Shown piece by piece: positions 4,309 to 24,088 of a DNA stretch of 29,626 bases (its first letter is position 1; every line of letters begins with the position of its first letter). Origin of the DNA: a virus (lineage: Duplodnaviria > Caudoviricetes); the IMG/VR virus record IMGVR_UViG_3300031963_000683, positions 1 through 29,626 of that record. One strand, given 5' to 3'. The notes under the pieces were generated by a model, which ran no database searches, was not told the origin of the DNA, and was given only the letters and a program-made list of their open reading frames with translations. The translations under genes were made by a program, and so were the position numbers.

Positions 4309-6893
4309 CGCCGGGCCCGGAACAGCGGCGCGCGCGATCCGCGATCGAACACCCGCGCCTGCACCTTGGTCTGTACTGCGGCGACGTTGCGGCCGGCACC
4401 GAACAGCAGGTTCCCGCCCTCGCCCATACCCAGCAGGAGGTATTGGAACGCGTCACAGTTCGAGACCAGCGCGCCCTCCACGTAGAAGACGTGCTCGTTT
4501 TCGACCTCTAAGTCATAGACGGGTAGCGAGCCGTAGAGCCGCAGCGGTTCGACCCGAACAACTCTTGGAGCAGTGCGTGACCTTTGAATATTTGTTGGTG
4601 CGGAAGCCGACGCCGCACTGAACGCAGATCCGATCCACGTCATCCACGCCGGAAGCCCTGCGGGCCATGCCCTGACAGGACATGGAGCAGAAGCCCTTTT
4701 TTCTGTAGCCGTATTTGACCCAGTAGGGCTTAGCGCACCAGACGCACTCGTGTTGCTGAGGCTCGCGCTTTGAGGCGTCGAGCTTGGCGGCGGCGCTGGC
4801 GCGTCGGCGATATTCTGGGCACTTCTTTGCCTCAGCAGCTTTGAGCCGCATGGTAGCCAGAAACCCCGCGCAGTTTTGCGGCATAGGTCCGTCGTGAATC
4901 CAGTGGTGCTTTGCGTGATCCTCCGCGTGCATCGCCTCCAGATTTTCGATTGCGTTGTTGGCTGCGTCTCCGTCGACGTGGTGGATATGATGGTCATCGG
5001 GGATCGGCCCGTGATGGTGCTCCCAGACGACGCGATGCATGTAGCGCCCGCCAAACTTGGGGTCGCAGCGGTAATAACCGCTGGGGCCGGGTCGACGGTA
5101 ATAGCGCCGCCCGTTGAACTCTTGGATTGGGTACTTCGCGGGTCTGCCCATGAATCACATTCTCCGACTAGGAGATCATTATACTGCAAAGCATCAGCAC
5201 GCACAAAACGCACGCCATCAACAGCGAAGTGATGCTCGGGCGTGCAAGTGATCTTGCGGCCATTGGAGAGATGAACCTGCACCAAGTCGGACGCGGGGCG
5301 GTTCATGCAGGCCGCGACCCTCTGCGCGCCATTTGGGGTCAGGACGAGATCACCGGGCTGAAGCGTCTCAATCGGCACGCGGCCGGACGGCGTGCTCACC
5401 AACGTCCCGGCCACAAAGCAGGTGTGACTGTACTGGTTCTTGACGACGTCGTCGGAGACGAACTCGCCGAACGAGGACTTGGTGACCTTGAACTGGTAGC
5501 CGCCGCTCAGGCCTTGCACCAGCATGCGGCAGCCGGGGTCAATCATCAGCGCCTGATAGCCGTCGACCTGACGCTCGAGCAGGCTGTCGACCACCTCCTT
5601 GCGCCCGCCGACCTTGGAGAAGCGGTTGGCGCCGGGGGCCGGTCGGACCGGCATGCCTTGCTGGCGGAAGATGTCGAACGGGGTTTGCTCGTCGGTCTGT
5701 GACCGGACGGCGCTGCCAGGGTCGCCGATGAACTTGACGCGCGCCAGATCGAGGCCGCCGAAGCGGCGCAGGATCTCGCGCTTGACCACGGGCGCGAAGC
5801 TCACCGCGCCGACGCCCTCGGCGTAGAGCTCGCCCAGCACGAAGACGCGGCCGCGGATGGTCTGGCCAAACACGACCGCCGGCGTCAGGCCGAAGTCCAT
5901 GCCGACGTAGAGCTCCAGCTCGGGATTGAACTTGAGCGCGTTCGGGCTGACGTGGCTGTTGCGCTCACCCTCGCCGCGGAACAGCGGGTGCACCGCCTTA
6001 CCCTTCATCTGGCTGGCGGCGATGTTGCGGCAGTTGGCGTCGATCCACTGGCGCGTCACGCCGTGGATTTTCTTGGGGTAGTAGTCCGGCCTAAGCCAGC
6101 GCAGGTTCTCGGCGCCAGGGTTGACGCAGTACTCGACCTCGTCGCCCGGATTCAGCGGCTCCAGCCCAGAGGCCTTCAGCGCATCGTCCAGCACCAGCAG
6201 CGCCGGCGGCTGGACATACAGGCACCAGCCGGGCGGGCGGCGGTGCTTCTGCACGTCGTCCGGCGTGAAGTGGTCCGGCACGGGCGCCTTGCCGAACATG
6301 ATGGGCGCCCAGTGCAGGCTCTCGGGCGCGTTCATGTCAGCGATGCCGCCGGACCAGTTGCACCCGCCGTTCTTGACGGACGGATAGCGGCCGCAACGCG
6401 ACAACCCCTCCGTCACCAGCATCAGGCTGATGTACTGAAGCTCGTTGAAATAGATCCCGGTCAACTGCAGCGAGCGCAGCTTCTTGACATCGTCGTCTTT
6501 GTCCAGCGCGAGGAAGATGAACTCGGCTTCCATGTCGCCGTAGCGCATGTGGTAGGTGAACGGCGGCGACCACGACATCTCGCCGAAGCCGCCCTGCGCC
6601 TCCGAGCCCTCGGGAAACAGGTTCACGAACGAGGGGATCGTCGTCGTCTTCAGCTCAGGGAAGGTCGAGCGGACGATGGCGAAGCGGGAGCGCCGGACCT
6701 TATCGCCTTGCGGCGGTTGCTGACTTGCATGCCGGAACAGGCGCATGATCGCGGCGTCGGTCTTGCCCGAGCCGATCGGCCCCTGGATGATGTCGAACTC
6801 ATTGTCCGCGAGCAGGAACGCCGACAGGATTCGGCCATCAGGCTCAAAGCGGATCGGCTCGCGCGGTGGTTGGGATGCTGCCTTGCGGGCCAT
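4305..6893 (-). CDS. terL: Terminase large subunit precursor containing an intein
   Basis: Walker A GPIGSGKT, Walker B-like YFNELQY, nuclease motif VGMDFGLTPA, C-terminal SHT|CDAFQY interrupted by the intein. Confidence 0.93.
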   Translation of the reverse strand: MARKAASQPPREPIRFEPDGRILSAFLLADNEFDIIQGPIGSGKTDAAIMRLFRHASQQPPQGDKVRRSRFAIVRSTFPELKTTTIPSFVNLFPEGSEAQGGFGEMSWSPPFTYHMRYGDMEAEFIFLALDKDDDVKKLRSLQLTGIYFNELQYISLMLVTEGLSRCGRYPSVKNGGCNWSGGIADMNAPESLHWAPIMFGKAPVPDHFTPDDVQKHRRPPGWCLYVQPPALLVLDDALKASGLEPLNPGDEVEYCVNPGAENLRWLRPDYYPKKIHGVTRQWIDANCRNIAASQMKGKAVHPLFRGEGERNSHVSPNALKFNPELELYVGMDFGLTPAVVFGQTIRGRVFVLGELYAEGVGAVSFAPVVKREILRRFGGLDLARVKFIGDPGSAVRSQTDEQTPFDIFRQQGMPVRPAPGANRFSKVGGRKEVVDSLLERQVDGYQALMIDPGCRMLVQGLSGGYQFKVTKSSFGEFVSDDVVKNQYSHTCFVAGTLVSTPSGRVPIETLQPGDLVLTPNGAQRVAACMNRPASDLVQVHLSNGRKITCTPEHHFAVDGVRFVRADALQYNDLLVGECDSWADPRSTQSKSSTGGAITVDPAPAVITAATPSLAGATCIASSGSTITGRSPMTIISTTSTETQPTTQSKIWRRCTRRITQSTTGFTTDLCRKTARGFWLPCGSKLLRQRSAQNIADAPAPPPSSTPQSASLSNTSASGALSPTGSNTATEKRASAPCPVRAWPAGLPAWMTWIGSAFSAASASAPTNIQRSRTAPRVVRVEPLRLYGSLPVYDLEVENEHVFYVEGALVSNCDAFQYLLLGMGEGGNLLFGAGRNVAAVQTKVQARVFDRGSRAPLFRARR
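4458..5420 (-). mobile_element. Intein (321 aa) in TerL
   Basis: Block A CFVAGTLV, block B TCTPEHHF, block F VYDLEV, block G ALVSN followed by Cys+1; removal restores KNQYSHT-CDAFQY. Confidence 0.93.
4513..5151 (-). CDS. HNH homing endonuclease with C-terminal Cys zinc fingers, nested out of frame in the intein
   Basis: MHRVVWEHHHGPIP..HIHHVDGDAANNAIENLE HNH motif; CVWC..FCSMSC and CVQC..HCSKSC; own RBS GGAGA 9 nt before ATG. Confidence 0.9.
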   Translation of the reverse strand: MGRPAKYPIQEFNGRRYYRRPGPSGYYRCDPKFGGRYMHRVVWEHHHGPIPDDHHIHHVDGDAANNAIENLEAMHAEDHAKHHWIHDGPMPQNCAGFLATMRLKAAEAKKCPEYRRRASAAAKLDASKREPQQHECVWCAKPYWVKYGYRKKGFCSMSCQGMARRASGVDDVDRICVQCGVGFRTNKYSKVTHCSKSCSGRTAAALRLATRL

Positions 6894-6899
6894 ACGCGG

Positions 6900-6933
6900 A
6901 GAAGGCGCGGCGCTGGCTATGGGCTCAACGCAC
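6900..6933 (-). promoter_or_regulatory. Putative late promoter copy 3 (GTGCG-TTGAGC-N17-CCTTCT), leaderless terL
   Basis: Intergenic; terL ATG lies 6 nt after the hexamer; no SD. Confidence 0.7.
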
Positions 6934-6938
6934 GAGGA

Positions 6939-7856
6939 TTACGGCAGCCAGGTCCGCGACACCAGTTCCGACGCACCAAAACGACCCTTGCTCGCGCCGA
7001 TCACAGCGGTCGCAACGTCAAGCGTCCCGCCCGGCGTCAGGCCTGTGACCAGAGTCGTCGTGGCGTCGGCATAGGTCAGCAGCGCCCTGGTGTGGCCGGC
7101 AGGAACCGGCTCCGTGAACACCGGCAGGCTGCGTGATGCCGTTGTGCCTGTCGTGACGATGGGAGACGTTGCGACCGAGCCAAGCTCAAGTTGGGCCTGC
7201 CACAGAGTAACACCGGAAACGTCGTCGCCCGCGAAGGTGACGTTGGAGGTGGGGCTGATGTTGACGCGCGCGATCGCGTTCGCGGCCACGCCCGTAATCG
7301 CCACAGCGCTACGGTAGAAGCTGCGGGATACCGCCAGCAGGGATGGCGTAACGCCCGCCTCATTGCCGACAATCGTGCCCGTGTTGAGGTCAAACACCAC
7401 CCCGGAACCGACCGTGCCCAGCCGTTGAGTGACGAACCCGTAACCCGTCGGGACACCGAATATGGAATACGTCTGCGTTCCTGCCGACGATACCGGCGTC
7501 TGATCGAGGCGGTGTTGCGCGTTGGCCGTGCTGGCGACCACGGTATCAGCGGTCGTTGTGCCGTCCGGAGCGATAACGGCGTTGGCCGTCACACCAAAGA
7601 TATTGGTTCTGGCATACGAACCGTTGTCGAACTCTTGCGAGCGCCGCAGAAGGTTGGTCGCGGCAGGCTCTAGCGCAAGGCCCCGATCCGTCCGCTGTGG
7701 CGCATCCTCCGCAAACGTCTCGATCACGCCTGCCGCTGTCAGCGCGGTCGCCGCGCCGACCCGCGTGTAGGTCGAGCCTGCGGGCATGGCGGCGCGGAAG
7801 TCGTGGAAAATGGCAGCCTTGGAAAGCGATGCGAGATCTATGCCGATCCCGAGCAT
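6939..7856 (-). CDS. Head spike fibre protein (RcGTA rcc01080-like)
   Basis: MLGIGIDL N-terminus, LALEPAATNLL and WQAQLELGSVATSPI motifs; follows the spike-base gene. Confidence 0.75.
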   Translation of the reverse strand: MLGIGIDLASLSKAAIFHDFRAAMPAGSTYTRVGAATALTAAGVIETFAEDAPQRTDRGLALEPAATNLLRRSQEFDNGSYARTNIFGVTANAVIAPDGTTTADTVVASTANAQHRLDQTPVSSAGTQTYSIFGVPTGYGFVTQRLGTVGSGVVFDLNTGTIVGNEAGVTPSLLAVSRSFYRSAVAITGVAANAIARVNISPTSNVTFAGDDVSGVTLWQAQLELGSVATSPIVTTGTTASRSLPVFTEPVPAGHTRALLTYADATTTLVTGLTPGGTLDVATAVIGASKGRFGASELVSRTWLP

Positions 7857-8116
7857 CAGTAGAGGGCGACCAGGTTCGTTGCGGTGGTGCTGGTGGCGTT
7901 CACCCGCTGGCAGTTCACCGGGAGCACCGTGCCAGACGCAGCGTTCTTGAACGTCACCGCATTGTCCTGGGCGGTGATGACGACGACGTCGCCACCTACG
8001 CCGACGTAGATGCCGCGGCAGATCGCAAAATAGGTCGTGTCGGACGGCGTGATCGCCACCGCGTCGTCTGCAGCGCCGTTATCACCGGCAGCGAATGGGT
8101 TGCGCACAACGGGCAT
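7856..8116 (-). CDS. Head spike base protein (RcGTA rcc01079-like)
   Basis: 86 aa AVAITPSD..RGIYVGVGGDV..VTFKN..GTVLPV..RVNATSTTATNLVAL; AGGAG RBS. Confidence 0.85.
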   Translation of the reverse strand: MPVVRNPFAAGDNGAADDAVAITPSDTTYFAICRGIYVGVGGDVVVITAQDNAVTFKNAASGTVLPVNCQRVNATSTTATNLVALY

Positions 8117-8139
8117 CGTTGGGTCTCCTGTTCGTGGAC

Positions 8140-8173
8140 ACCACGCCGCAAGCCCAAGGGTCGCTCAACGCAC
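8140..8173 (-). promoter_or_regulatory. Putative late promoter copy 4 (GTGCG-TTGAGC-N17-CGTGGT)
   Basis: Intergenic, immediately after the upstream stop. Confidence 0.65.
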
Positions 8174-8175
8174 CG

Positions 8176-8529
8176 TCAGTGAACCCAGCCGTTGAGGTGC
8201 GCAATCTCGTGACGCAGGAGCTTGCCGCAATAGGCGTCCTGCTCGGCCGGACAGTGCGGCAGCAGGATCACGCGCCTGGGCATGAAGGTGCAGGCCATGA
8301 TGATGTCCCGCGCCGGGGGCGGCTGGCCACCGCACGCCATGTGCACCTGATACGGCGTGCCGACGATGACGACGAACGGCTGGTCAGGGGCATGATCGTA
8401 TTTGGCCGGCGGGGCCTCGACCGCTTCAGGCGAGGGCACAAAGAGCCGGACTTCCTGCGTAGAGGCGGAGGGGCCTGACATGGTGGGTATGAGCGTGACA
8501 GCCAAGGCTGCGATCAGGGTTTTCAGCAT
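8176..8529 (-). CDS. Small exported protein with HExxH (zincin-like) motif
   Basis: Signal-peptide-like MLKTLIAALAVTLI, four Cys, C-terminal LRHEIAHLNGW; AGGAGG RBS. Confidence 0.7.
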   Translation of the reverse strand: MLKTLIAALAVTLIPTMSGPSASTQEVRLFVPSPEAVEAPPAKYDHAPDQPFVVIVGTPYQVHMACGGQPPPARDIIMACTFMPRRVILLPHCPAEQDAYCGKLLRHEIAHLNGWVH

Positions 8530-8546
8530 GCGCCCCTCCTGTGTGT

Positions 8547-8580
8547 AGGAGGGGGTCGGGGTGGGGCTGCCTCAACGCAC
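8547..8580 (-). promoter_or_regulatory. Putative late promoter copy 5 (GTGCG-TTGAGG-N17-CCTCCT)
   Basis: Overlaps the upstream stop codon; predicted +1 falls on the AGGAGG SD. Confidence 0.65.
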
Positions 8581-8775
8581 GGGGCGGTGAAAGCCGAGCG
8601 GGCCGCGATGCGATTCGGCGGCATCTCGCGCCTTCATGGCCTTGCCGATCTGAAAGGCGCGGTGGGCGGCGGGGCTTACGGACTTGAACCGTGGCGGTTC
8701 CTCCTGCCCGCTCAGATCGTAGCAGGTGCCAGTCTCAAACCACGGCAGCCAGTCCTCGTCGTCCCAGTCGTCCAT
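8572..8775 (-). CDS. Hypothetical protein
   Basis: MDDWDDEDWLPWFETG.. starts 1 nt after the upstream stop; PLGF C-terminal motif. Confidence 0.55.
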   Translation of the reverse strand: MDDWDDEDWLPWFETGTCYDLSGQEEPPRFKSVSPAAHRAFQIGKAMKARDAAESHRGPLGFHRPVR

Positions 8776-8776
8776 C

Positions 8777-8959
8777 CTACCCCATCTCCACATCGTCGAC
8801 GTCCAGGGTGCCCGGATCAGGCCGCAGGTCGGTCGCGGATCTCGGGAACGGGCGGCCAAGGCGCGCGGCCCAGCGTGCGCGCTTGGCGGAGGCTTTCTTG
8901 TTTTTGACCAGTTGCTCTGCCTGCCAGACAGCGTGCTCGGGTGTGCCGGCCACGATCAT
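8777..8959 (-). CDS. Hypothetical protein
   Basis: MIVAGTPEHAVWQAEQ..; ATGA coupling to the upstream gene. Confidence 0.55.
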   Translation of the reverse strand: MIVAGTPEHAVWQAEQLVKNKKASAKRARWAARLGRPFPRSATDLRPDPGTLDVDDVEMG

Positions 8960-10167
8960 GCGACCATCTCCGGCGAGACGGTCACAGAGCCGACCTGCCC
9001 CCACCGACTGTGGTAGGTGTAGGCCGTGGCCTGCCTGTCGCTGTGCCAGCCGCCGCGGGCCGCATAGGCGTCGCGCGCCGCAAGGGTCGAGTGCTGCGTC
9101 ACCTTCATGCCGCTGTGCTCCTTGATCTCCTCGTGATGCCGGTGGCCGGTGTGGGCGTATCGCTTTGTCGTCGCGCCCCACTCGCGCGGGTACTGAGCGG
9201 CGAACAGCAGGGGCAGGCCGTCGTTCTTCTTCAGGTGCCCGTGGTGGAACGCCAGCATGGTCTCGCCGTGGACGTGGACGTAGTAAGGCAGCTCGCTGTC
9301 GATGACCTTCACGCGCGGCTCGTTCTCGTACAGGGCGCCGAACATGATGCGGAGCCAGACGCTCGAGGCAAGGTCGTGGTTACCCTCGGCCATGACGACA
9401 AAGACGGTCTTGTGGCGGGAGAGCGCCAGATCAATCACCCGGCGCAGAATGCGGATCGCCGTGCGGACCATCTTGGAGAACCGTCCGTCGGCGTCCAGCA
9501 CATGCCCGTGGCCCGGCGTCACCGGCAGCAGGCCGTCATAGTGCAGAAAATCGCCAAGCTGGTTGACGACGCAGGTGTCGGCGCAGGGCGATCGCTCGAC
9601 CATCTGCTCAAAGCAGCCGACCAGCGTGTCCTCGGCGATCTGCATGTCCCAGTCGGCCCCGCCCTCCTTGCGCCACGCCAGCATGCCGACATGGGAATCG
9701 GTCAGGGTGAACAGGTTGCACAGCGCCTCGTTGGTGCTCGCCGGCGGGGCTATGGACGCAACGCGCGGCACCTCCTCGCTGAGGGCGGCAAACGCCTCCC
9801 GCAGCATCTCAGCCCGGCGCTCATCGTCCGCGCTCGACTTGTCCCAGGACAGCACCTCGACACGCTGGCCGGTGACCGGATCCAGTTTGCGCAGGACAGA
9901 TCGGCCTTTGAGCTTGAACCCGTCCGGCACCTGCTCGGTCATGCCGTACTCAGGCGCGTGGCCCTGCGCAGCAGCGCGGGCGCGGATCTGCGCCAGCATC
10001 CGTCGGAAGCTGCGGTCGTCCGTGTTCAGGTGTCTGGCGGCGTGGGTAATGCTGCCAATGTCAATGACGGCCTGCACGCACTCTCGCTGGCGCTCCGTCT
10101 CGCAGAAGCGGAGCAGAGCCTCGGTCGGCACCGCGTCCTGCGGCGGGACGAACCGGAGGCCGGTCAC
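8956..10167 (-). CDS. HTH plus calcineurin-like metallophosphoesterase
   Basis: N-terminal GSITHAARHL HTH; TDSH, LGDFLH, GNHD, HHGH and GHRHH metal motifs; GTG start coupled to the Rz1 stop. Confidence 0.85.
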   Translation of the reverse strand: MTGLRFVPPQDAVPTEALLRFCETERQRECVQAVIDIGSITHAARHLNTDDRSFRRMLAQIRARAAAQGHAPEYGMTEQVPDGFKLKGRSVLRKLDPVTGQRVEVLSWDKSSADDERRAEMLREAFAALSEEVPRVASIAPPASTNEALCNLFTLTDSHVGMLAWRKEGGADWDMQIAEDTLVGCFEQMVERSPCADTCVVNQLGDFLHYDGLLPVTPGHGHVLDADGRFSKMVRTAIRILRRVIDLALSRHKTVFVVMAEGNHDLASSVWLRIMFGALYENEPRVKVIDSELPYYVHVHGETMLAFHHGHLKKNDGLPLLFAAQYPREWGATTKRYAHTGHRHHEEIKEHSGMKVTQHSTLAARDAYAARGGWHSDRQATAYTYHSRWGQVGSVTVSPEMVA

Positions 10168-10430
10168 TCGCACAACTCCCGCGCCGTGCCGGCCCGGCCC
10201 CAGCCCTCACGGCCCCAGTCCAGAACCTCGGACGCCCATGCCAGCAGGTCGCGCGTGGCGTCCTTCTCGGCATTGGTGACGGGAGCGACAAGACCGGCGC
10301 TATCCGGCAGCACAGGCTCCGGCCGGACCTCGGTGCAGAGGCTAGGCGGCAGGGGCGGTTGGTTGGAGTGCGTCGCGCAACTCGCCAGAAGGAACAAGCT
10401 CGCGCACAGCACAGCCTTGGGGATCGACAT
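10164..10430 (-). CDS. Outer-membrane spanin (Rz1-like lipoprotein)
   Basis: Lipobox LLAS-C, Pro-rich; overlaps the 3' end of the Rz-like gene in another frame. Confidence 0.8.
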   Translation of the reverse strand: MSIPKAVLCASLFLLASCATHSNQPPLPPSLCTEVRPEPVLPDSAGLVAPVTNAEKDATRDLLAWASEVLDWGREGWGRAGTARELCE

Positions 10431-10671
10431 GGATCGGCCTCTCGATGATGGTCTCGATGCGCCGGGCCGACTGACGGGCCTCGTTCACGCGGGCCAGGCA
10501 TTGATCGGCCTGGGTTTGGGCGTCATCCTGCGCAGCGACCTTGAAGTCACGCAGGGTCTTGAGTTCGGCGTTGGCCTCGATCAGCTCGTTCTTGAGCCGG
10601 TCGACGCGCCACGACTGCACGCCGGCAAGCGCCAGAGCCACGGCCAATGCAGCGAGCAGGTAGCGGGTCAT
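10342..10671 (-). CDS. Inner-membrane spanin (Rz-like)
   Basis: MTRYLLAALAVALALAGVQSWRV TM anchor followed by coiled coil. Confidence 0.8.
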   Translation of the reverse strand: MTRYLLAALAVALALAGVQSWRVDRLKNELIEANAELKTLRDFKVAAQDDAQTQADQCLARVNEARQSARRIETIIERPIHVDPQGCAVRELVPSGELRDALQPTAPAA

Positions 10672-10877
10672 TCCGGCCTCCACGCGACAGGATAGAAGCA
10701 CTTGCTGCGCTCCCAGTGCCCCTCCATCACGACCTCGCCTTCCCCCCAGTGTCTGACGGTCGGACACAGCGGATGCGTGATGCGCGACTGGATTCGGGCC
10801 TCGCGCCCGTCCTCGTCGATGCCGACAATCCACGTCCCATCTTGCGGGGCGTCTTGCATGTCGCGGAAGTCGGTCAT
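10668..10877 (-). CDS. Hypothetical protein (DUF551-like APxDGT motif)
   Basis: DAPQDGTWIVG..PVAWRP; ATGA-coupled at both ends. Confidence 0.6.
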   Translation of the reverse strand: MTDFRDMQDAPQDGTWIVGIDEDGREARIQSRITHPLCPTVRHWGEGEVVMEGHWERSKCFYPVAWRPE

Positions 10878-11368
10878 TGCTCGTTCACCGTGATCGGCGT
10901 GCCGTTGGCCTTCAGCCTGACAACCCGAGCGACGGGCAGCGGTATCTCATTCGGCCAGCGCATCTCCGACAGGCGATTGCGGGCGATGCGGGTGATCGAG
11001 ACGGCGTCGCCCTGATTGCCGCCAAGGACGTGCAGGTGTGTGTCGTCCTCGCCGACATAGAAGCCGACGTGACCTCCTCCGGCCCGCGTGAAGGTCAGGA
11101 TGCAGCCAGGTCGGGGAGCCAGCAACTTGCGGCCCCACTTGCCCCACTCCGATGCACGGACGGCGATCGGCGGGGACTTGATGCCTGCATGGTCCATGAC
11201 GTGCGCGCAGAACAGGCCGCACCACGGGACGGAGTCGGCGGCGTAGCTGATGCCGAGAACCTTCGCGCCGAGCCGCTTGGCCCAGCCCATGATCGTGGCG
11301 CTATTGCCCGCGCCGGGGACTTCGCGCACGCCGATCAGCGAACGCGCGTAAGGCATCCAGATACTCAC
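10874..11368 (-). CDS. Endolysin, TIGR02594 family (NlpC/P60-CHAP-like)
   Basis: IGVREVPG..DSVPWCGLF..GGGHVGFY..VLGGNQGDAV; GTG start overlaps the holin stop. Confidence 0.88.
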   Translation of the reverse strand: MSIWMPYARSLIGVREVPGAGNSATIMGWAKRLGAKVLGISYAADSVPWCGLFCAHVMDHAGIKSPPIAVRASEWGKWGRKLLAPRPGCILTFTRAGGGHVGFYVGEDDTHLHVLGGNQGDAVSITRIARNRLSEMRWPNEIPLPVARVVRLKANGTPITVNEQ

Positions 11369-11604
11369 GCCACCCCCCGGATTTTCTCGATGGTCTTGAG
11401 GCCCAGCATCGCCGCGCAGAAGGTGAGCCAGGCGACGAGGTAGCCCTCCGGCATGGGGCGCTGGATTGCGGGGCCGATCACGCCGGCGTAGGCCAGTCCG
11501 GCAACGACGACCCATCCAGCAGACGGCCGCCACAGACGGTCAAAGCACTGCCACGCCCAGTGCGTGCGGATCGGATGGTCCGGCAGGGCGGTGTGGTCGG
11601 TCAT
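11365..11604 (-). CDS. Holin (GTA 3TM-holin-like)
   Basis: WRPSAGW and MLGLKTIEKIRGV motifs, two hydrophobic segments; directly upstream of the endolysin. Confidence 0.78.
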   Translation of the reverse strand: MTDHTALPDHPIRTHWAWQCFDRLWRPSAGWVVVAGLAYAGVIGPAIQRPMPEGYLVAWLTFCAAMLGLKTIEKIRGVA

Positions 11605-11828
11605 CGCGCACGCTCTATGCGGTCAAGCTGCTTCTGCATGGCCTCTGTCCGCTCATCCAGCCGGGCCAGCGTCCCATCCGCCAGCGGCGCGACCGTGCGC
11701 TCAAGGGTCGAGACGCGCTGATTGATCCCGCCACCCCAGAAGACCAGCGTCGTCGCCTGAGCTACCAGCGCGACGATCACGCCAATCATCGCCCAGTTCA
11801 ACTTTCGCGCGTCCGAATGCAGAGTCAT
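11601..11828 (-). CDS. Single-TM coiled-coil lysis-cassette protein (holin/antiholin-like)
   Basis: MTLHSDARKLNWAMIGVIVALVAQ..LARLDER..LDRIE. Confidence 0.65.
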   Translation of the reverse strand: MTLHSDARKLNWAMIGVIVALVAQATTLVFWGGGINQRVSTLERTVAPLADGTLARLDERTEAMQKQLDRIERAR

Positions 11829-11866
11829 CCGTTGCCACCCCAGCCTTCGTGCGCGCGCGTTTGCAT
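11825..11866 (-). CDS. Putative leaderless 13-aa uORF (MQTRAHEGWGGNG)
   Basis: ATG at the predicted +1 of promoter copy 6; TGA overlaps the next ATG (ATGA). Confidence 0.35.
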   Translation of the reverse strand: MQTRAHEGWGGNG

Positions 11867-11872
11867 GCCCGC

Positions 11873-11906
11873 ACATCGCCGCCTCGACCTCGCACCCTCA
11901 ACGCAC
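11873..11906 (-). promoter_or_regulatory. Putative late promoter copy 6 (GTGCG-TTGAGG-N17-CGATGT), lysis cassette
   Basis: Intergenic, 4 nt after the upstream stop. Confidence 0.7.
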
Positions 11907-11910
11907 AAGG

Positions 11911-16363: not shown

Positions 16364-16391
16364 AATCCCGCCAACAGATTTTTCAAAATCC

Positions 16392-16427: not shown

Positions 16428-16451
16428 GCGTGGGCGGAAAAGAGCGGGGAA

Positions 16452-18863
16452 TCAGGACGTGCCGGGAGAGGGGCGCTCGACGGACACGCGATACGACTTG
16501 ATCTTGTGCCCGCCTGCCGGCGGCTGATCCTCTCGCCGGTCCAGATCCCCGCCGTCGACCAGGCCGTCCAGCATGTCGCGAAGCTCCTTTGCCTTGAGCC
16601 GGTTCTTGAGCGACTGGGATATTTCCCGAAACGTCATCCAGCCACGCCCCTGCAGTGCACGGATGACACGCTGCGCCTCGCCCTGGTGCTGCGTCTCGGC
16701 CATGTAATCGGCGGCCATCTCGACCGTCTGTTCCGCGGACCACCGTGCAAGCGCGATACCCCAGTCCATGTCCTCGAGCGTGACGCGCGCCGCGGCACCG
16801 TCGCGACCGATCGCCCTGATCGTGGCCATGCGCTGCGCCATTTCCGCCGAGCGGGTGAAGAACACCGCGTCCAGCTCGCGCCGCTCACACTCCTGCCCGA
16901 ACGCCATGTAGGCCTGGTGCGCATACTTGTCGTCCCATGGCACGACGATCGAGGGGCCGTCCGAGGCGGAGTTGTGTGACGTTGCGCGACTGAGCGGAGG
17001 CAGGGACGCGACGATCGCAACCAGCCCGTCCGTGATCGCATCCGGCACGGCAGTCTTGTCCAGCAGCGGCTCGCGCTCCTCAACACGGGCGTGCGTCGAG
17101 AAAATCAGGAAGCGATTGAGGAAGCCGTTGAAAACGTCCGCGCCGTCGAGGTTGGCGAAGAACTCCTCGTGCGTGGACACCCCGTAGATCGAGAGCGCCG
17201 GCGAGAAGATCGGCTCCCCTACCCTGCCCGCCCATTCCGGCGTGGCCATCGTGTCAAAGCTCGAGCCCCAGGCCGAGCGCAGGGTGCGGGTGATCGCCTT
17301 CTCGTGCGGCGAGGCCTTGCGCCCATTGATCCGGCCGAGATAGCCGCCGAACTCATCAATGCAGGTGAGCGTGAGCGGCTGGCGATTGAGACGCGAGACC
17401 AGCGCCGACATGGACATGAACTCGCCGGGCCCGACATGGGCGCCGAGGGTTGCCGCACGCAGCACGCGATCAATCGCCTTGAGCGGGTGATCCTTTGCCG
17501 CGCCAGACGGTGCCAGAAATAGCCCATACAGGTGCGTTCCGGTGCGTGTAGGGCCTGAAAACGTGCGCCCTGCAGCCGTTCCGACGATCTCCAGCGCCGC
17601 CATGAGCGCGCCGGCACGCTGAGGCTTGCGCGCCGTATCGCAGATCCAGTCCGTGATCGAGCCGACAAGGCCGGGTGCGCGGGTGAGCGCATCGGGAAGC
17701 TCGTTGCCGAACGTGGTGGGCGGGGCGTCTGCGTATTCAGGATGCTCGACCTTGAGCCGGTCCATAGCGGGCGCGACCACCGTGTCAGCGAACTCCTGCA
17801 GCGTGACCGGCGCCTTCACCCGCAAAGGCTCAGGCAGGTCGCTGTCAACCACCGTCGGCATATCCAGCGCGATCACCACGCTGTCGTCCTTCAGGCCCAG
17901 TCGCTCACGCAGCCAGTCCGTCGCCGCCGCTTGCTCGCAGTCCCGCGCGGCCATGACCAGGTCGATCGCCGAATAGGTCTCGTTCGTCCCAAAATCCTTG
18001 ATGCCATCCCGCTGGATCGACAGGTTGCGCTTGCGGTCCGGGATCGCCTGCCCGGTGCTGGACGCCCGCCATGTCGCGACCGCCTCAAACCCGCCGCGTG
18101 CAGGCCTGCATCCATACAGGTCGAGGGCGGGAACCCACTTGTCGAGATTCGCCAACGCCGCACTTTTTGTCTCAGACCAGATGTCATCGGGGTCAAGCTC
18201 GCCGCAACGGGGCGGGCGTGGCGCACGATCCTTGCCGGCAGACACACGCTCCCGCGACCACCCGCACACCTCCAGCGCCTCCTCCAGCGCCGTCATGTCG
18301 TCATCGGTCAACACGGGAAGCTCGTCCGCGCGCACGGGTCCGGCCAGCCAGACGTAGGGCTTGCCGGTTTCCGGGTGGATCGACGGCGGCACGACGGTCT
18401 GGCGCGTGTCGAACCCTGTCAGGCGATCGAGAAGGCGCCCGTCGGGCCCGTCATACGAGGCGGTCTTCAGCGTCTTGGGGGCCAGATAGAACCGGCTCTC
18501 GCCCTTCGCGCCACGCTTGACCATCGGGCTGGCCGGTGCAGCACGCAGCAGGGTGTCCAGCACGTCTGCGTCCTGAGCGTCAAAGTCCAGAACGACGACG
18601 TGCAGGTCCTTGCGCGCGACCGTGCCCATGAGCAGGCCGATGTTCGCGCCCGGCGCCTTGGACCACAGGCCGAGCTCAAACGCGGAGGGCGTGGTATCGC
18701 GGAACCGTTGCCACTTGGACATGCCCTGCCAGCCGCCCGAGCGATACTCGCCGGGGCATTTGCCGCGACCCTGATGCTGGGCCCAGTCGGCGGGGATCAG
18801 CGGCAGGACCGAGTAGCCGAGCGCCTGCAGGTCGGAGGCAGATGCGGAGAAGGGAGAACTCAC
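16452..18863 (-). CDS. Bifunctional primase-polymerase fused to a DUF3987-like helicase/ATPase domain
   Basis: GYSVLPL..GKCP..ANIGLLMG..VLDFD..QTVVPPSIHPETGKPY Prim-Pol motifs; APSGAAKD, IDEFG and GFLNRFL; GTG start with GTGA overlap. Confidence 0.88.
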   Translation of the reverse strand: MSSPFSASASDLQALGYSVLPLIPADWAQHQGRGKCPGEYRSGGWQGMSKWQRFRDTTPSAFELGLWSKAPGANIGLLMGTVARKDLHVVVLDFDAQDADVLDTLLRAAPASPMVKRGAKGESRFYLAPKTLKTASYDGPDGRLLDRLTGFDTRQTVVPPSIHPETGKPYVWLAGPVRADELPVLTDDDMTALEEALEVCGWSRERVSAGKDRAPRPPRCGELDPDDIWSETKSAALANLDKWVPALDLYGCRPARGGFEAVATWRASSTGQAIPDRKRNLSIQRDGIKDFGTNETYSAIDLVMAARDCEQAAATDWLRERLGLKDDSVVIALDMPTVVDSDLPEPLRVKAPVTLQEFADTVVAPAMDRLKVEHPEYADAPPTTFGNELPDALTRAPGLVGSITDWICDTARKPQRAGALMAALEIVGTAAGRTFSGPTRTGTHLYGLFLAPSGAAKDHPLKAIDRVLRAATLGAHVGPGEFMSMSALVSRLNRQPLTLTCIDEFGGYLGRINGRKASPHEKAITRTLRSAWGSSFDTMATPEWAGRVGEPIFSPALSIYGVSTHEEFFANLDGADVFNGFLNRFLIFSTHARVEEREPLLDKTAVPDAITDGLVAIVASLPPLSRATSHNSASDGPSIVVPWDDKYAHQAYMAFGQECERRELDAVFFTRSAEMAQRMATIRAIGRDGAAARVTLEDMDWGIALARWSAEQTVEMAADYMAETQHQGEAQRVIRALQGRGWMTFREISQSLKNRLKAKELRDMLDGLVDGGDLDRREDQPPAGGHKIKSYRVSVERPSPGTS

Positions 18864-19066
18864 CCCAGGCCCCCCACCGGAATCGTCCACGCCGACACGA
18901 TGCGATCGCCCGCGGCCTTGTTCGCCTCATTGACGACGATGAGACAGAAGGTAACGTATTCGTCCGCGGACAGGGTGCGCAGGTCGAACTTGCCCAGTGC
19001 GTCCAGGTGCGCGCCGCCGATCTCGGACGCGCGCTTGACGTCGTCGAGTGTGAGGTAGGGGGTCAT
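18860..19066 (-). CDS. Small protein (DUF6511-like)
   Basis: GAHLDALGKFDLRTLSADEY motif; typical neighbour of this primase type. Confidence 0.6.
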   Translation of the reverse strand: MTPYLTLDDVKRASEIGGAHLDALGKFDLRTLSADEYVTFCLIVVNEANKAAGDRIVSAWTIPVGGLG

Positions 19067-19587
19067 GCTGCTTGCCTCCCGAAAAATGTGGCGGTTGTGT
19101 TTGCGGCGGTGCGGTCGAACAGGTGCCACGCGCAGTTGTCCTTGCCGGTCATCTTGCTGTCGGGAATCCACCTCACGCGGCCAACCGACACGATGCGGCG
19201 GAGGCGGGCGAGGAACGGCACAGCCTGCCGGGTGTGAACCCAGTCGGCGTCAAACAGAAGCCATGTCGGGGCCTGATCCGACAGGTGAACGATCAACGGG
19301 TGCAGCACTTTCCGATCCCAAGGCGGGTTCGTGATGATGCAGTCCAGCGAAACGTACCGCAGCGTGAGCGCGTCGGCCTGAAGCATGGAGCGTTGCGGCT
19401 CAATGTCCGACTCCATGACGCAGACATGGCCGGCCGCCGTCAGGCTGTCGACCAGCGCGCCGTCGCCAGCGCAAGGCTCAACGAACCGCGTGCCCGGTGC
19501 CAAGTGCGCCAGCAGCGGGCGCACGGCCGCCTCCGGTGTCGGGTAGAAGTCGCGCGGGACGCGGGCGAAGTCGGAACGCTTGCCCAT
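19063..19587 (-). CDS. Orphan DNA amino-methyltransferase (N6-adenine type)
   Basis: DFYPTP, EPCAGDG SAM-binding motif, IITNPPW catalytic motif. Confidence 0.88.
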   Translation of the reverse strand: MGKRSDFARVPRDFYPTPEAAVRPLLAHLAPGTRFVEPCAGDGALVDSLTAAGHVCVMESDIEPQRSMLQADALTLRYVSLDCIITNPPWDRKVLHPLIVHLSDQAPTWLLFDADWVHTRQAVPFLARLRRIVSVGRVRWIPDSKMTGKDNCAWHLFDRTAANTTATFFGRQAA

Positions 19588-19757
19588 CACTGAACCCCCA
19601 CAATCTGACCATCAGCCAGCACCACACGCTTGCCGTCCGGCAGCGCCTCCCAGTATTTCACCTGCACGACGTCGCCCCGATCGGGCTTGACGTTCAGGAC
19701 GAACTCGCCGGTTCGCGTGACGTATCCGCCCGTGACTGTGGCGTTGAAGCGGGTCAT
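19587..19757 (-). CDS. Hypothetical protein
   Basis: MTRFNATVTGGY.. 56 aa; coupled on both sides. Confidence 0.6.
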   Translation of the reverse strand: MTRFNATVTGGYVTRTGEFVLNVKPDRGDVVQVKYWEALPDGKRVVLADGQIVGVQ

Positions 19758-20206
19758 GCGACGAACCTCCGCAGGGACCGCTCGAAATCCTTGGGCTTGC
19801 CCGTCGGGCGATAGACGATCGCGCGGTGGCCGGCGCAGTAGCTCGTCGCCCCGTCGCAAGGGTTGCAGCACGATTGCCCGTCGTCGAGAATCCACGAGCA
19901 CTCGCGCATGGTCCGCGACAGGAACGGGCGCGCGGCCATGATGTCGACCACCACCGGCACCGCAACCACGGCCTCGACACGCGGCGGTCTGGGCGGTTTG
20001 ACCACCTTGAACTTCTTGACGCGCTGAGGCTTGGGCGCGGCGGGGCCTCGCGTACCCCGGACCATCGCACCCTCGCGCTTCAGGCCCATGCGCCACAGCC
20101 GGCCGCACACGGCGTTCCGGGTCAGGCCAAAATATCCGGCGATCTCAGTCGCTGACTTGCCCTCGCGCCACAGATCGTGCGCAACGCCGTCGTTCCACGC
20201 GTTCAT
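19754..20206 (-). CDS. GcrA-like cell-cycle regulator
   Basis: LWREGKSATEIAGYFGLTRNAVCGRLWRMGL N-domain; CSW..C..SYCAGH C-domain. Confidence 0.85.
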   Translation of the reverse strand: MNAWNDGVAHDLWREGKSATEIAGYFGLTRNAVCGRLWRMGLKREGAMVRGTRGPAAPKPQRVKKFKVVKPPRPPRVEAVVAVPVVVDIMAARPFLSRTMRECSWILDDGQSCCNPCDGATSYCAGHRAIVYRPTGKPKDFERSLRRFVA

Positions 20207-20577
20207 GCCGACACCCGATCGTCGATCCAGGCGCGCAGCTCGGGGGCGAGGGTGTAGCAGCCGGTGCCGTATGCGTTGCTGATCCCGCCGGGCGCCTTGA
20301 AGTCGGCGAACCGGCGACGCAGTTGCGACAGGCAAACCTTGACGCTGGCGAGGTCGGGCCCGTCACCGCAGTCCCGCTCGAACACGTTGAGGTAAATCGC
20401 CGTCGTCGAGATGGGACGGGTCGCGCCCATCAGCAGCGCCAATGTGCCGGCCTGCTTGGGCGAGAGGCCGAAGGCGTGGCGAAGCTGTGTCTTCTGGTCG
20501 ACGGTGCCAGTCAGTTCGCTCAGACGCTCGCGCAGGTACTCGACCTCAGCGCGGAGGGATTCGATGGTCGCGGTCAT
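20203..20577 (-). CDS. OmpR/CtrA-type winged-helix protein lacking a receiver domain
   Basis: FGLSPKQAGTLALL..PDLASVKVCLSQLRRRF..ISNAYGTGCYTL; N-terminal coiled coil. Confidence 0.75.
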   Translation of the reverse strand: MTATIESLRAEVEYLRERLSELTGTVDQKTQLRHAFGLSPKQAGTLALLMGATRPISTTAIYLNVFERDCGDGPDLASVKVCLSQLRRRFADFKAPGGISNAYGTGCYTLAPELRAWIDDRVSA

Positions 20578-22202
20578 GCCGCTTGCTCCTGTGATTGAGT
20601 GAAGCGGCGCGAAGCAATGTTCCACCACTTTCCGTTTTTCTGAATTCCAATGAAGGCGGGCTGCGAAAGCTCGCTCCAACGCACCAGCGCGTCCTCGATC
20701 GTGTCCGGCACCGGCAATCGCCCGCCATGCGCAACCCACCACTTCTCAGCGCGGTATCGTCCGGGCCCGCTGTGTTGCAGCAGCACCCACTCGGGGTAGG
20801 ACATCAGCCCGGCCGAGTAGGTGACGCGCAGACTGTCCGGCGATCCGGCCTTGACGTGCCGACGCGCCATCCAGGTGACGACCGGGATCTCCTCCGGCGG
20901 CTGGTTGCGCAGATCCCGTGAGAGGATCGCGACGTCGTCCGCCTCAGCGTCGTGCCGGGCCTTGTCGAGCGTCCATTCGTGGCCACAGAAGGCGCAGGTC
21001 TGGGCGTTAAGCGCGGCGAGGGACTTGCAGGTCGGGCACTCCTTGGCGCGGACGTCCGTGACCTTCGCCGCGTCGGGCGCACCCTTCTTGCCCGGCCGAC
21101 GATCAACGGTGAGCGTGTCGACTGGGCCGAGGCGGCGGATCGTGCCGGTGTAGTCGAGCACGAGACAGTCCGCTTTGCCCTCCGCCAGTCGGGTGCCGCG
21201 GCCAAGCATCTGCACGAGCAGGCCGGGCGAGAGCGTCGGACGCAGCAGCGCGATCATGTCGAGGCCGGGCGCGTCGAAGCCGGTCGTCAGGACGTTGCAG
21301 TTGGTGAGGCAGCGCAGGCGTCCGGCACGGAAGTCGTCGATGAACCGGGCCCGGTCGCCCGGATGCGTCTCGCCAGAGATGACCTCGCACGACACGCCCT
21401 GCCGCACGAACTCGTCGCGGACATGGTGCGCGTGCTTCACGCCGGCGCAGAACGCCAGCCACGATCGCCGCCCCTCGCCGAGCGTGATGATCTCCGAGAC
21501 GGCAGCCTGGGTGACTGCGTCGTCATCTGCCGCGGCCTCGAGGGCGCCGGAGACGAACTCCCCTCCCCGCTTGGCCACCATCGACACGTCGATCTCGGTC
21601 GCGCCGGACTTGGACACCAGCGGCGACAGCCAGCCGTCGTCGATGCCTTTGCCGATGCCGTAGGAGAACACGATCTCGTCGAACAGGCGGTCCTTGCCGT
21701 CGTCGAGGCGACCCGAGTCCATGCGGAACGGCGTGGCGGTGAAGCCGGCGACACGCAGGTCCGGCCGCATCTCACGCAGGGCATCGAGCAGGTGCCGGTA
21801 CATGCCCTCGCCTGCCGACGGGACCAGATGCGCCTCGTCGATCAGGACCAGGTCGAACGCGCCGAGCTCCTTCGCCCGCCGATAGACCGACTGGATGCTG
21901 GCGAAGATGATCCGCTGACTGGTGTCGCGCCGGCCGAGACCGGCCGAGTAGATGCCGACAGGGGCTTGCGGCCAGAGGGAGAGCAGCGCCTTGGCGTTCT
22001 GGGCGACCAGCTCCCGCACATGCACGAGCATGAGCACGCGCATCTGGGGGTAGGCGCCCATGAGGCGCTGCGTCAGGTCGCCGATCGTGACGGACTTGCC
22101 GAGGCCGGTCGCCATGTCGACGAGGGGGTTGCCGCCGCCCCGTTCCCAGTATGAGAGGACGGAGTCGATGGCGGCGGATTGGTAGGGGCGGAGTTGGGTC
22201 AT
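20574..22202 (-). CDS. SF2 DEAD/DEAH helicase (RadD/YejH-like) with zinc finger
   Basis: LRPYQ, ATGLGKS, DEAH, TATP, LTTGFD, QMLGRGTR, CPTC..CAFC. Confidence 0.93.
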   Translation of the reverse strand: MTQLRPYQSAAIDSVLSYWERGGGNPLVDMATGLGKSVTIGDLTQRLMGAYPQMRVLMLVHVRELVAQNAKALLSLWPQAPVGIYSAGLGRRDTSQRIIFASIQSVYRRAKELGAFDLVLIDEAHLVPSAGEGMYRHLLDALREMRPDLRVAGFTATPFRMDSGRLDDGKDRLFDEIVFSYGIGKGIDDGWLSPLVSKSGATEIDVSMVAKRGGEFVSGALEAAADDDAVTQAAVSEIITLGEGRRSWLAFCAGVKHAHHVRDEFVRQGVSCEVISGETHPGDRARFIDDFRAGRLRCLTNCNVLTTGFDAPGLDMIALLRPTLSPGLLVQMLGRGTRLAEGKADCLVLDYTGTIRRLGPVDTLTVDRRPGKKGAPDAAKVTDVRAKECPTCKSLAALNAQTCAFCGHEWTLDKARHDAEADDVAILSRDLRNQPPEEIPVVTWMARRHVKAGSPDSLRVTYSAGLMSYPEWVLLQHSGPGRYRAEKWWVAHGGRLPVPDTIEDALVRWSELSQPAFIGIQKNGKWWNIASRRFTQSQEQAA

Positions 22203-24088
22203 GCGGCCTGCTCCAGCGACCGAACCGCCTCGACAGCCTGGATGCGCTCACCGATCCAGCGCATGCACGGAACCGCCATGCTGTTGCCCAGAGCCTTGTA
22301 TCGAGGGCCGTCAGCGGCGGGCTTTCCGCGATGCGGGACGGAGGTGTAGCCGTGGTGCGTCGTGAACCTAATCTCGTAGGAACAGCCGCTCCGCATTGCC
22401 TCGGGAATGAACCCAGCCATGGCAATCGCCACACAGCAGGACAAGGTTTCCAGTGTCGAGGCGAAGGTCGGGTCGTTTGACCCAAGTGGCGATGTGGTGG
22501 ACCTCGAACATCGGGTCAGGCCGTCGATGAACCACGCCGCATCGCTGGCACGTTCGGTGATCTCGGGCCCAGACAGAGCCACAAACGCGCTTCCATTCAG
22601 CGGATGAATAAAAGGCTTGGTGCTCTGTGGTGATTCCGCCCTTCCAATGCGGGTTGAGTTCGCCACGGCGGCGTTCATGAGCACAGCCAGGAGAGCAAAA
22701 GCGTCGCTCGGCATAGGTGGGAGAGACGAGCTTTCGAGTTCCGCAATGCTCGCAGACCAAGACGACTTTCCGGCACTGTGTAGCTGAAGAACCTGCCGCT
22801 CTAAGTCGATCAGCACATTGACGGCCACAGGTGCGCTTGGCCCGAGCGCGAGGGCTGCTGAACCCCTCGCCGCAGACGACGCAAGCGCGTGTTTCTCGTC
22901 CTCGCTTCTGCATACGAGAATCCTGAGCTCATTCGTGATTTCGGGGAAGCCCTGAAGGCGCTCGCATTCGCGGGGGGTTAGGCGGCGGACGGCGGAGCCG
23001 GCTGTGAGCAGGCTTTCCGCAGTGTCGGCGTCGGTCCCCTGCGGTCGGTTTCCGCCTGTGGCGTTCCCCCCGGCCCGAAGCGTGGGGCTTGCGCTGACGT
23101 GCGCCACCGCTTGCGGCACGGTCCGAGCTTCCAGCGTGTAGGCGGCATCATCTGACCTGAACCCAGCACCGTCAGGCCCGGCGTTCGGGTTCTCGCAGAC
23201 GGCGCGCTCCTGAATGGCGTAAGCCACCGCGGGCTGGACAATGTAATCCCCGCCCTGGTTTCCCCCCGTAGGCCCCGCAGCCATGACGGGCTGCGATACG
23301 TTCGTCTCCCGGCCCTTGAAGTCCTTGCCGCTGTTCATCGGCATGATGGAGAACGCCACAGGCACGATCGGCGTCCCGCGACCCGTCCCGTCCTCGCTGG
23401 CGTCGAAGCCCTCGCCCTTGAGGGTGTGGGCGATCAGGTGACCGGCCTGTCCCTGGTTGTCGTCCGCGCCACAAGTTCCAACGCCGTTTGCAGTGAGCGC
23501 GGCAACGCCCGGCCCCTTTTCTCTGCGCGGCGCAGGATTCCCCGACAGGCTGTGGCGCTCAAATAGAACCGCTGCGGCACGTCGCCAGTCTCCAAGGTAT
23601 CCGACAACGAACACACGGCGGCGGCGCTGGGCCACTCCGAAGAACTGAGCGTCAAGGACTCGGTAGGCGACGCCATACCCGAGTTCGACCATGCCCCCGA
23701 GAATGGCTCCAAAGTCCCGTCCTCCGTTCGATGACAGGACGCCGGGGACGTTCTCCCACACCAGCCATCGGGGCCGCAGTCGGTCAGCCAGCCTAAGATA
23801 TTCGAGGGCCAGGTTGCCCCGGTCGTCATCCAGTCCGCCTCTGAGCCCGGCGACGCTGAAAGACTGGCAAGGTGTTCCTCCGACCAAAAGGTCGATTGGC
23901 TCGTATTCGCCAGCCTTGATCGTGGTGAAGTCGCCATGAAGCGGGGTCTCCGGGTAATGGTGAGCAAGGACCGAGCGCGGGAACGCCTCGATCTCGGAAA
24001 AAAACGACGCCTTCCAGCCAAGCGGATGCCATGCGGCGGACGCGGCCTCGATGCCGGAGCAGACGGATCCGTAGGTGAGCGCACTCAT
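22199..24088 (-). CDS. C5 cytosine DNA methyltransferase carrying a ~196-codon in-frame insertion
   Basis: CSGIEA (I), GGTPCQSFS (IV), WENVPG (VI), QRRRRVF (VIII), RRLTPRECERLQGFP (IX), YKALGNSMAV (X); ATG 24088 by ATGA overlap. Confidence 0.92.
   Translation of the reverse strand: MSALTYGSVCSGIEAASAAWHPLGWKASFFSEIEAFPRSVLAHHYPETPLHGDFTTIKAGEYEPIDLLVGGTPCQSFSVAGLRGGLDDDRGNLALEYLRLADRLRPRWLVWENVPGVLSSNGGRDFGAILGGMVELGYGVAYRVLDAQFFGVAQRRRRVFVVGYLGDWRRAAAVLFERHSLSGNPAPRREKGPGVAALTANGVGTCGADDNQGQAGHLIAHTLKGEGFDASEDGTGRGTPIVPVAFSIMPMNSGKDFKGRETNVSQPVMAAGPTGGNQGGDYIVQPAVAYAIQERAVCENPNAGPDGAGFRSDDAAYTLEARTVPQAVAHVSASPTLRAGGNATGGNRPQGTDADTAESLLTAGSAVRRLTPRECERLQGFPEITNELRILVCRSEDEKHALASSAARGSAALALGPSAPVAVNVLIDLERQVLQLHSAGKSSWSASIAELESSSLPPMPSDAFALLAVLMNAAVANSTRIGRAESPQSTKPFIHPLNGSAFVALSGPEITERASDAAWFIDGLTRCSRSTTSPLGSNDPTFASTLETLSCCVAIAMAGFIPEAMRSGCSYEIRFTTHHGYTSVPHRGKPAADGPRYKALGNSMAVPCMRWIGERIQAVEAVRSLEQAA
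22352..22939 (-). mobile_element. In-frame insertion in the MTase, consisting almost entirely of an out-of-frame HNH gene
   Basis: Interrupts the normally contiguous LQGFP-x-x-YT; no intein blocks; boundaries uncertain by 1-2 codons. Confidence 0.75.
22368..22913 (-). CDS. Zinc-finger HNH endonuclease nested out of frame in the MTase
   Basis: CVVC..TCGRQC and CEHC..FCSPGC fingers, NPHWKGG, RDHRTCQRCG..EVHHI..NLVLLCGDCHGWVH; AGGA RBS 7 nt upstream. Confidence 0.9.
   Translation of the reverse strand: MQKRGRETRACVVCGEGFSSPRARAKRTCGRQCADRLRAAGSSATQCRKVVLVCEHCGTRKLVSPTYAERRFCSPGCAHERRRGELNPHWKGGITTEHQAFYSSAEWKRVCGSVWARDHRTCQRCGVVHRRPDPMFEVHHIATWVKRPDLRLDTGNLVLLCGDCHGWVHSRGNAERLFLRD
23434..23937 (-). 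CDS. Alternative-frame MTase partner polypeptide (EcoHK31I beta-like arrangement)
   Basis: +1 frame ORF with GGAGA RBS 9 nt before ATG 23937; ends in SLSDTLETGDVPQRFYLSATACRGILRRAEKRG. Confidence 0.7.
   Translation of the reverse strand: MATSPRSRLANTSQSTFWSEEHLASLSASPGSEADWMTTGATWPSNILGWLTDCGPDGWCGRTSPASCHRTEDGTLEPFSGAWSNSGMASPTESLTLSSSEWPSAAAVCSLSDTLETGDVPQRFYLSATACRGILRRAEKRGRALPRSLQTALELVARTTTRDRPVT

Follow-up and report, generated by a model that had tools for sequence, protein, structure and literature searches.

Two out-of-frame HNH endonuclease genes in one phage genome: a large-terminase intein and a C5-methyltransferase insert of known layouts

The large terminase gene (terL) of the brucellaphages (Tb, Pr and relatives) was reported in 2015 to carry a putative intein with a gene for an HNH endonuclease lying out of frame, for which a terminase-associated role was raised (PMC4422536). 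More recently, non-canonical inteins in which frame 3 holds an endonuclease VII-like gene were described in actinobacteriophages (bioRxiv 10.1101/2025.01.02.630785), and the ShiLan domain, reported in 2025, was found to hide an HNH gene in mycobacteriophage methylases with no splicing domain, leaderless initiation being proposed for it (PMC11855218; PMC9957025). The DNA analyzed here, IMG/VR record IMGVR_UViG_3300031963_000683 (Duplodnaviria; Caudoviricetes; positions 1 to 29,626; the window hereafter means this whole stretch), is a linear virus record of 29.6 kb, 72% complete, with a guanine-cytosine (GC) content of 0.66, which holds one insert in terL and another in a C5 cytosine methyltransferase (MTase) gene. 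An earlier note, made from the letters of this DNA alone, had proposed that the two represent one distinct new class of homing element. To judge from the available text of the papers cited above, both layouts are already in print, the first as an intein with an out-of-frame HNH and the second as the ShiLan design; two known kinds occur in one genome and there is no new class. It is likely that the two inserts are independent, that each carries a complete HNH gene in frame +2 beneath an open host frame and spreads by homing, that the terL insert is spliced out as an intein while the MTase insert is kept in the enzyme, and that the HNHs are made from short transcripts of their own.

The terL gene (4305..6893, minus strand) encodes a terminase large subunit precursor of 862 amino acids (541 without the insert), identified by PHROG terminase matches and by empty alleles of 1626 nucleotides (nt) with 99% amino acid identity, which also give the exact ends of the insert (4458..5420, minus strand; 963 nt, 321 amino acids). 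Read in the host frame (5420-4458), the insert begins with C-FVAGTLV, contains TPEH as block B and ends with HVFYVEGALVSN just before a Cys (SHT|CFVAG...ALVSN|CDAFQY). Its product matches Hint_2 (E-value 8e-11) and, under the curated cut-off, Intein_splicing (E-value 4e-8) in Pfam, as well as intein-like entries in the PDB. Among the features that define inteins, the N-terminal Cys, the TxxH of block B and the terminal Asn followed by Cys (S-N|C) are present, and the penultimate His is replaced by Ser. The terL insert is a Hint-domain intein of class-1 type by these motifs, and its splicing is predicted; the host frame is not the mere shadow sequence for which it had been taken. The intein interrupts what we take to be the C-terminal H-x-x-D-A-x-x-Y motif of the terminase nuclease domain. 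Between its splicing blocks lies a complete nuclease open reading frame (ORF) in another frame (4513..5151, minus strand; frame +2, 212 amino acids), with C-terminal zinc fingers, conserved His/Asn columns (alignments A1, A4) and a stop codon inside intein block F. Pfam assigned it to HNH_3 only (E-value 9.6e-16) and gave no match to an endonuclease VII-like nuclease.

A profile search with this HNH, from which the best 80 of 219 loci were kept, recovered 50 loci with an open host frame, 49 of them within Hint-type inserts (45 near the C-terminal nuclease motif and 4 at a Walker B-like site, the hosts being assigned from flanking motifs and not by profile search) and one in a methylase-like frame. 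The other 30 showed host-frame stops and include full-length free-standing relatives (L225, L227, L228, L232, and L233) with 3-8 stops. In L249, L251, L255, and L272 a related intein, also containing an HNH in frame +2, interrupts a Walker B-like sequence (GPQFHGGW|C...N|CDELAAW) and not the nuclease motif. The same intein layout was present, with the HNH unannotated, in all three named phages that were opened (Tetrasphaera TJE1, Rhodobacteraceae LS06-2018-MD07, and Acinetobacter Highwayman), bearing out the expectation that annotation often misses such genes.

Insertion-free alleles, which the earlier note had called for, were found for both genes. The 20 terL loci examined comprise 4 filled copies of the window phage, 14 full-length genes that lack the insert to judge from the length of the match (at 11 of these the site itself was read) and 2 cut short. 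Empty alleles were 99.1-99.6% identical in amino acids at 6 loci and 90-91% at 2 more (L102-L109), and in sequencing run X8 an empty terL joint was present alongside the filled allele. The six closest empty alleles read SHT-A-DAFQY or SHT-N-DAFQY and more distant ones SHP-C-EALGY; at the +1 codon of the C-extein (4455..4457, minus strand), Cys in the window, the closest empty alleles thus have Ala or Asn. Within the near-identical set (L102-L110 compared) the filled allele has this Cys and the empty ones lack it, which is what arrival together with the element would produce. A co-conversion tract around the intein is only hinted at, by 3-8 differences within the first 30 nt downstream.

The MTase gene (22199..24088, minus strand; 629 amino acids with the insert; PF00145, E-value 2.5e-46) is interrupted after motif IX by an in-frame insert of 588 nt (22352..22939, minus strand; 196 codons), reading QGFPE|...|GYT where empty alleles read QGFPD-D/G/N-YT. 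No splicing domain was recognized: the host-frame product has no Hint domain and matched nothing in Pfam or PHROG, the insert ends show neither an N-terminal nucleophile nor a terminal Asn, and the window gave no Rfam match at gathering score, group I and II introns included. Beneath the host frame lies an McrA-like HNH endonuclease gene (22368..22913, minus strand; frame +2, 181 amino acids; PF01844, E-value 4.4e-9; alignment A3) with two N-terminal zinc fingers; the first zinc finger found in most relatives (~25 amino acids) is missing from this copy. ORF and Pfam analysis verified that both HNH genes are fully nested on the same strand at the +2 offset, with no host-frame stop across either, and that both keep their HNH motifs and catalytic residues intact. 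Their supposed unrelatedness holds insofar as they belong to different subfamilies, and is qualified by a zinc-finger module, the only part in common.

The best 80 of 227 loci were likewise kept for the MTase HNH. Its 53 closest relatives all lie at the same C5-MTase site and all have an open host frame, which is open in 60 of the 80 overall; 59 of these 60 are at the same site (3 by the 3' flank only) and one is in another methylase type. The open loci range in GC content from 0.30 to 0.63, with up to 27 stops in the third frame. The remaining 20 have 1-7 host-frame stops, and 13 of the 14 that were checked lack the upstream motif IX. Four loci (L142, L148, L150, and L157) hold the same insert at the same site in a distant C5-methylase subfamily (GC ~0.62), and other long in-frame stretches near motifs IX-X (L066, L068, and L030) were by eye unlike the window insert. 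Two further loci (L199 and L266) place hidden HNHs of the two clades under open amino-methylase-like frames with no Hint motifs. A protein search with the MTase region returned at least 120 methylases matching over the whole length. No match to the insert was obtained by tblastn against isolated phages, the HNH found only distant nucleases among isolates and plasmids, and a scan with the host-frame alignment was swamped by a host motif (4 loci).

The distance between motifs IX and X was parsed at 80 MTase loci: 4 were filled, 63 had a short spacing (25-52 residues), 1 was cut and 12 were left unparsed. A quick tree of 24 filled and 66 empty methylases, restricted to those whose core could be parsed, changes label 9 times, and a single filled clade is rejected (approximately unbiased test, p 5.7e-6). 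The nearest neighbor of the window MTase on this tree is an empty allele (98%), and loci L126 and L128 have HNHs 96% identical in hosts that are 74% identical. The two insert ends of the MTase showed only a loose likeness when searched for a target-site duplication, and none of the 5 records with a near-identical empty terL gave an MTase match, so that they supply no isogenic pair. The patchy distribution and the empty alleles suggest that both inserts are likely mobile.

An assembly or frameshift artefact was ruled out by contigs of three other sequencing runs, which cover the insert regions with 0-1 differences: run X7 spans 4344-5457 (0) and 21609-23594 (0), run X8 4200-5484 (0) and 21027-23594 (1), and run X11 22101-23594 (0). 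The compensating frameshift errors that the earlier note had named as a danger were looked for and none appeared.

In the window alone, an open host frame would arise by chance with a probability of 0.015 (codon shuffle) or 0.07 (synonymous recoding) in terL and of 0.17 or 0.15 in the MTase, and of the equally long windows taken from 14 other genes 0/234 and 5/271 were open; such single-window stop statistics were rejected as proof of selection, being too weak. The earlier note had taken the absence of NTG codons followed by an A-starting codon as a sign of selection. Selection is seen in the family; NTA followed by A or G is banned as well, and a single window is weak evidence. It is the family data, not the single window, that demonstrate selection. 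From codon shuffling, 109 stops would be expected in the host frames of the 43 MTase representatives and 84 in those of the 31 intein representatives, and none was seen; these representatives were drawn from loci with an open host frame, and the unselected evidence is therefore that of the 53/53 MTase-HNH loci. Among 17 disjoint MTase pairs the ratio of nonsynonymous to synonymous differences (pN/pS, uncorrected) had a median of 0.40 for the HNH frame and 0.99 for the host frame, and among 10 intein pairs of 0.39 and 1.35, respectively, with identity higher in the HNH frame in 27/27 pairs. Conservation lies, as anticipated, in the HNH frame, indicating that amino acid selection acts mainly on the HNH and that the host frame is mainly held free of stops. 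That the host-frame pN/pS is the lower of the two in the MTase hints weakly at added constraint on an insert that would be retained in the protein.

Both HNH genes are preceded by DNA under promoter-like constraint. In the intein a TTGTGC-17-TATAAT pair (5178..5206, minus strand), embedded in intein codons (…FVRADALQYN…), lies 26 nt before the HNH ATG and is followed by a GGAG Shine-Dalgarno (SD)-like site (5162..5165, minus strand) 10 nt before the same ATG. Across the 31 intein representatives the best -35/-10 pair within 60 nt after block B scores 9.0 vs 5.2 when recoded, a value reached by 0/300 recodings, and falls in two registers. The 43 MTase representatives, which align ungapped at motif IX, share a TAnnnT-like hexamer 17 nt past the host Phe-Pro codons, and in 37 of them a start codon follows it after 6 nt. 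Its positions T-12, A-11, and T-7 are conserved in 27, 35, and 43 copies, respectively; T-12 falls on a third codon position (27/43 vs 9.0 expected; 10/17 vs 2.1 at GC of at least 0.5), and the hexamer score exceeds that of 300/300 synonymous recodings. The window copy is CAGGAT (22920..22925, minus strand; 3/6), and the Phe-Pro codons TTCCCC (22943..22948, minus strand) may, given the fixed 17-nt spacing in the family, provide a weak -35 from the host gene. Under standard sigma-70 spacing, a hexamer 6 nt before the ATG puts the transcript start at the ATG itself; this geometry suggests that the HNH mRNA is likely leaderless in most methylase copies. The idea that each HNH has its own SD thus stands for terL, and in the MTase the AGGA concerned sits inside the family -10-like hexamer. 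In the long mRNA the terL GGAG is predicted to pair with a 5-nt arm located upstream of it (fold z -1.08, within chance); such a 5-bp hairpin would mask the SD there and lose its 5' arm in the short transcript. Hairpins at the starts were not beyond chance when compared with shuffles (z -1.08, 0.26, and 0.05).

AlphaFold2, run with 119 aligned rows, modeled the MTase catalytic core like M.HhaI and the insert as an alpha/beta unit, with a predicted local distance difference test score (pLDDT) of 76, near 90 in the strands at both ends, and a predicted template modeling score (pTM) of 0.73; the confidence of the insert model is possibly inflated by covariation inherited from the HNH frame. We infer from this model that the two end strands pair. 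A fold search with the host-frame insert over 48,161 chains gave a best Z of 3.7 with no Hint among the matches listed, and no viral fold match fell under an E-value of 0.1 (best in the Atlas 0.76); such a blank search is evidence of neither difference nor novelty. The insert likely remains part of the enzyme and adds a domain to it between motifs IX and X.

Taken together, it can be hypothesized that host gene copies free of the insert would be cut by the HNH and would acquire the insert during repair. [quoted passage not shown] The terL HNH would be translated from a short transcript started at the -35/-10 pair in the intein codons and read from the SD site, and the MTase HNH, in most copies, from a leaderless transcript set by the -10 box six bases before its start codon. 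A fuller proposal, which is possible and for now tentative, holds that the C5-MTase element is a splice-less homing parasite whose first bases, together with the host Phe-Pro codons, complete a promoter firing a leaderless HNH mRNA, and whose host-frame product has become a folded domain complete in itself, without a known fold and closed off by its two end strands, which would let the methylase, itself a two-frame gene, go on functioning. If true, this would be a protein fold born by overprinting that takes the place of splicing, in a family whose members number well over 100.

That a single new class of splice-less overprinted homing element explains both inserts is hardly credible. Frame offset, strand, zinc-finger HNH and open host frame are common to the two, but the terL insert has Hint blocks A, B, and F and a terminal Asn-Cys, the two HNHs fall into different subfamilies, each layout has already been published, and the +2 offset may only reflect the fewer stops forced in that frame. 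It is also very unlikely, if slightly less so, that the MTase insert is removed, be it as an unrecognized RNA intron, by ribosome bypass or as a non-Hint protein-splicing domain. The predicted fold of the host-frame product, its conserved Cys/Gly columns and a Thr two residues after the insert would be compatible with this, whereas the lack of host-frame stops in 53/53 loci would be unneeded for an RNA intron or bypass; the missing Rfam, Pfam, and PHROG matches and the insert ends, devoid of nucleophile and Asn, argue against it as well. Domesticated HNHs, acting as a packaging cofactor or in the restriction of competing phages and not as selfish homing enzymes, seem improbable. The terminase-associated role raised for the brucellaphage HNH favors such helpers and purifying selection on the HNH is compatible with either view, but the insert is missing from 99% identical terminases, and the inserts sit at conserved motifs and are scattered on the host tree.

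A more serious, still doubtful, alternative is that translation of the MTase HNH uses the long methylase mRNA, through SD-driven internal initiation or frameshifting, the -10-like box being a by-product of amino acid constraint on a beta-strand. AGGA lies 7 nt before the ATG in the window, GGAG occurs in the hexamer of 3/43 representatives, and the invariant T-7 doubles as base two of a codon for a hydrophobic residue within a predicted strand. Nevertheless, T-12 is enriched at the third codon position even in GC-rich genomes, A-11 is retained under Ile, Thr, Arg, and Lys codons, and the longer-leader copies L133 and L140 keep the box in place and add GGAGG. Several points weigh against our own preferred reading of two homing inserts with separately transcribed HNHs. 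Some MTase copies may use an SD on the long mRNA, as the three GGAG hexamers suggest, and the weak window hexamer, CAGGAT, could itself act as an SD. A strict consensus promoter scan found no site at either locus in the window, the terL site being missed because its -35 matches only 3/6, and the promoter scoring matrix is an E. coli-like one. The usual penultimate His is missing from the terL intein. On the MTase tree no more than 2 changes are forced by starred branches, and intragenic recombination could likewise have scattered the insert. L125, the filled relative closest to the window, has 85% HNH and 95% host identity, a pattern that speaks for inheritance and not for recent transfer. Finally, one copy, L172, has a stop in its HNH frame; at this locus (1520-2300) the host frame is open, as in a decaying copy.

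Among the other features of the window, the N-terminal half of the MTase gene carries a second nested ORF in the +1 frame (23434..24084, minus strand; PHROG 16143), open in relatives, which belongs to the host gene and not to the insert. It is open across motifs IV-VIII in 79/80 loci and encodes a Y/F-F/Y/L-L-S/T motif at 75 of the 80; all three sense frames of the MTase gene are used, in different parts. The minus strand also encodes capsid, head-tail connector, primase-polymerase, and helicase proteins besides the terminase and the methylase, whose nearest named relative is that of Caulobacter phage DMCA (67%). Sequence sets sharing at least half of the window's words are labeled as freshwater or fungus metagenomes; no RNA set was among those listed, which has no bearing on expression. 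Contigs of runs X8 and X11 skip 19054-19585, with a small NPPW-motif methylase-like ORF missing from co-occurring relatives, and 8571-8779. An ORF of 405 amino acids (8956-10173, minus strand) has no Pfam match and is presumably metallophosphoesterase-like, by motifs seen by eye.

The 2025 papers, in their accessible text, left open the expression of the hidden nucleases and the function of a methylase that retains its insert. The present locus yields base-level predictions, with transcript starts at ~5171 and at the ATG at 22913 that silent changes should abolish, and near-identical filled and empty alleles as material for homing tests. Hidden nucleases of this kind occur commonly, and without annotation, in the terminases and C5 methylases of phages well outside the actinophages.

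Compared with the described systems, the terL element resembles that of the brucellaphages in layout, as a large-terminase intein with an out-of-frame HNH; the available text of that paper gives no family survey, frame-wise selection or promoter, unlike the present analysis (PMC4422536). With the actinophage inteins it has in common a same-strand frame-3 nuclease between the splicing blocks, free-standing nuclease relatives and empty alleles in close relatives, but its nuclease is HNH_3 with zinc fingers instead of endonuclease VII-like, and the hosts of this type of intein are not restricted to actinophages (bioRxiv 10.1101/2025.01.02.630785). The MTase element and ShiLan are both ~200-codon in-frame inserts in phage DNA methylases with no splicing domain and a patchy distribution, carrying a frame-3 zinc-finger HNH that starts near the 5' end and stops near the 3' end (PMC11855218). 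They differ in that ShiLan gp65 is a DPPY-type amino-methylase and the window enzyme a C5 methylase with its insert at motif IX; the HNHs are 31% alike over 126 columns, the ShiLan GTG has no clear -10 box 6 nt before it, and the ShiLan insert was modeled with poor confidence (PMC11855218) vs a pLDDT of 76 here. The MTase element thus appears ShiLan-like in its working but is no orthologue of ShiLan; it is a widespread element of another methylase family, site and HNH subfamily. M.EcoHK31I also has a second chain in another frame within the methylase gene, as at 23434-24084, but there the nested chain carries motif IX, which the window has in the main frame (PMC2836561); the likeness is one of layout. 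The word promoter is missing from the main text of bioRxiv 10.1101/2025.01.02.630785 and of PMC11855218, and in the openly readable literature covered, the only proposal of an internal promoter or leaderless start in such elements is that of PMC11855218. Beyond what the accessible parts of those papers contain, this analysis adds the -10-like box before the MTase HNH, the promoter-like sites of the inteins, the predicted fold of the MTase insert and the wide spread of both elements.

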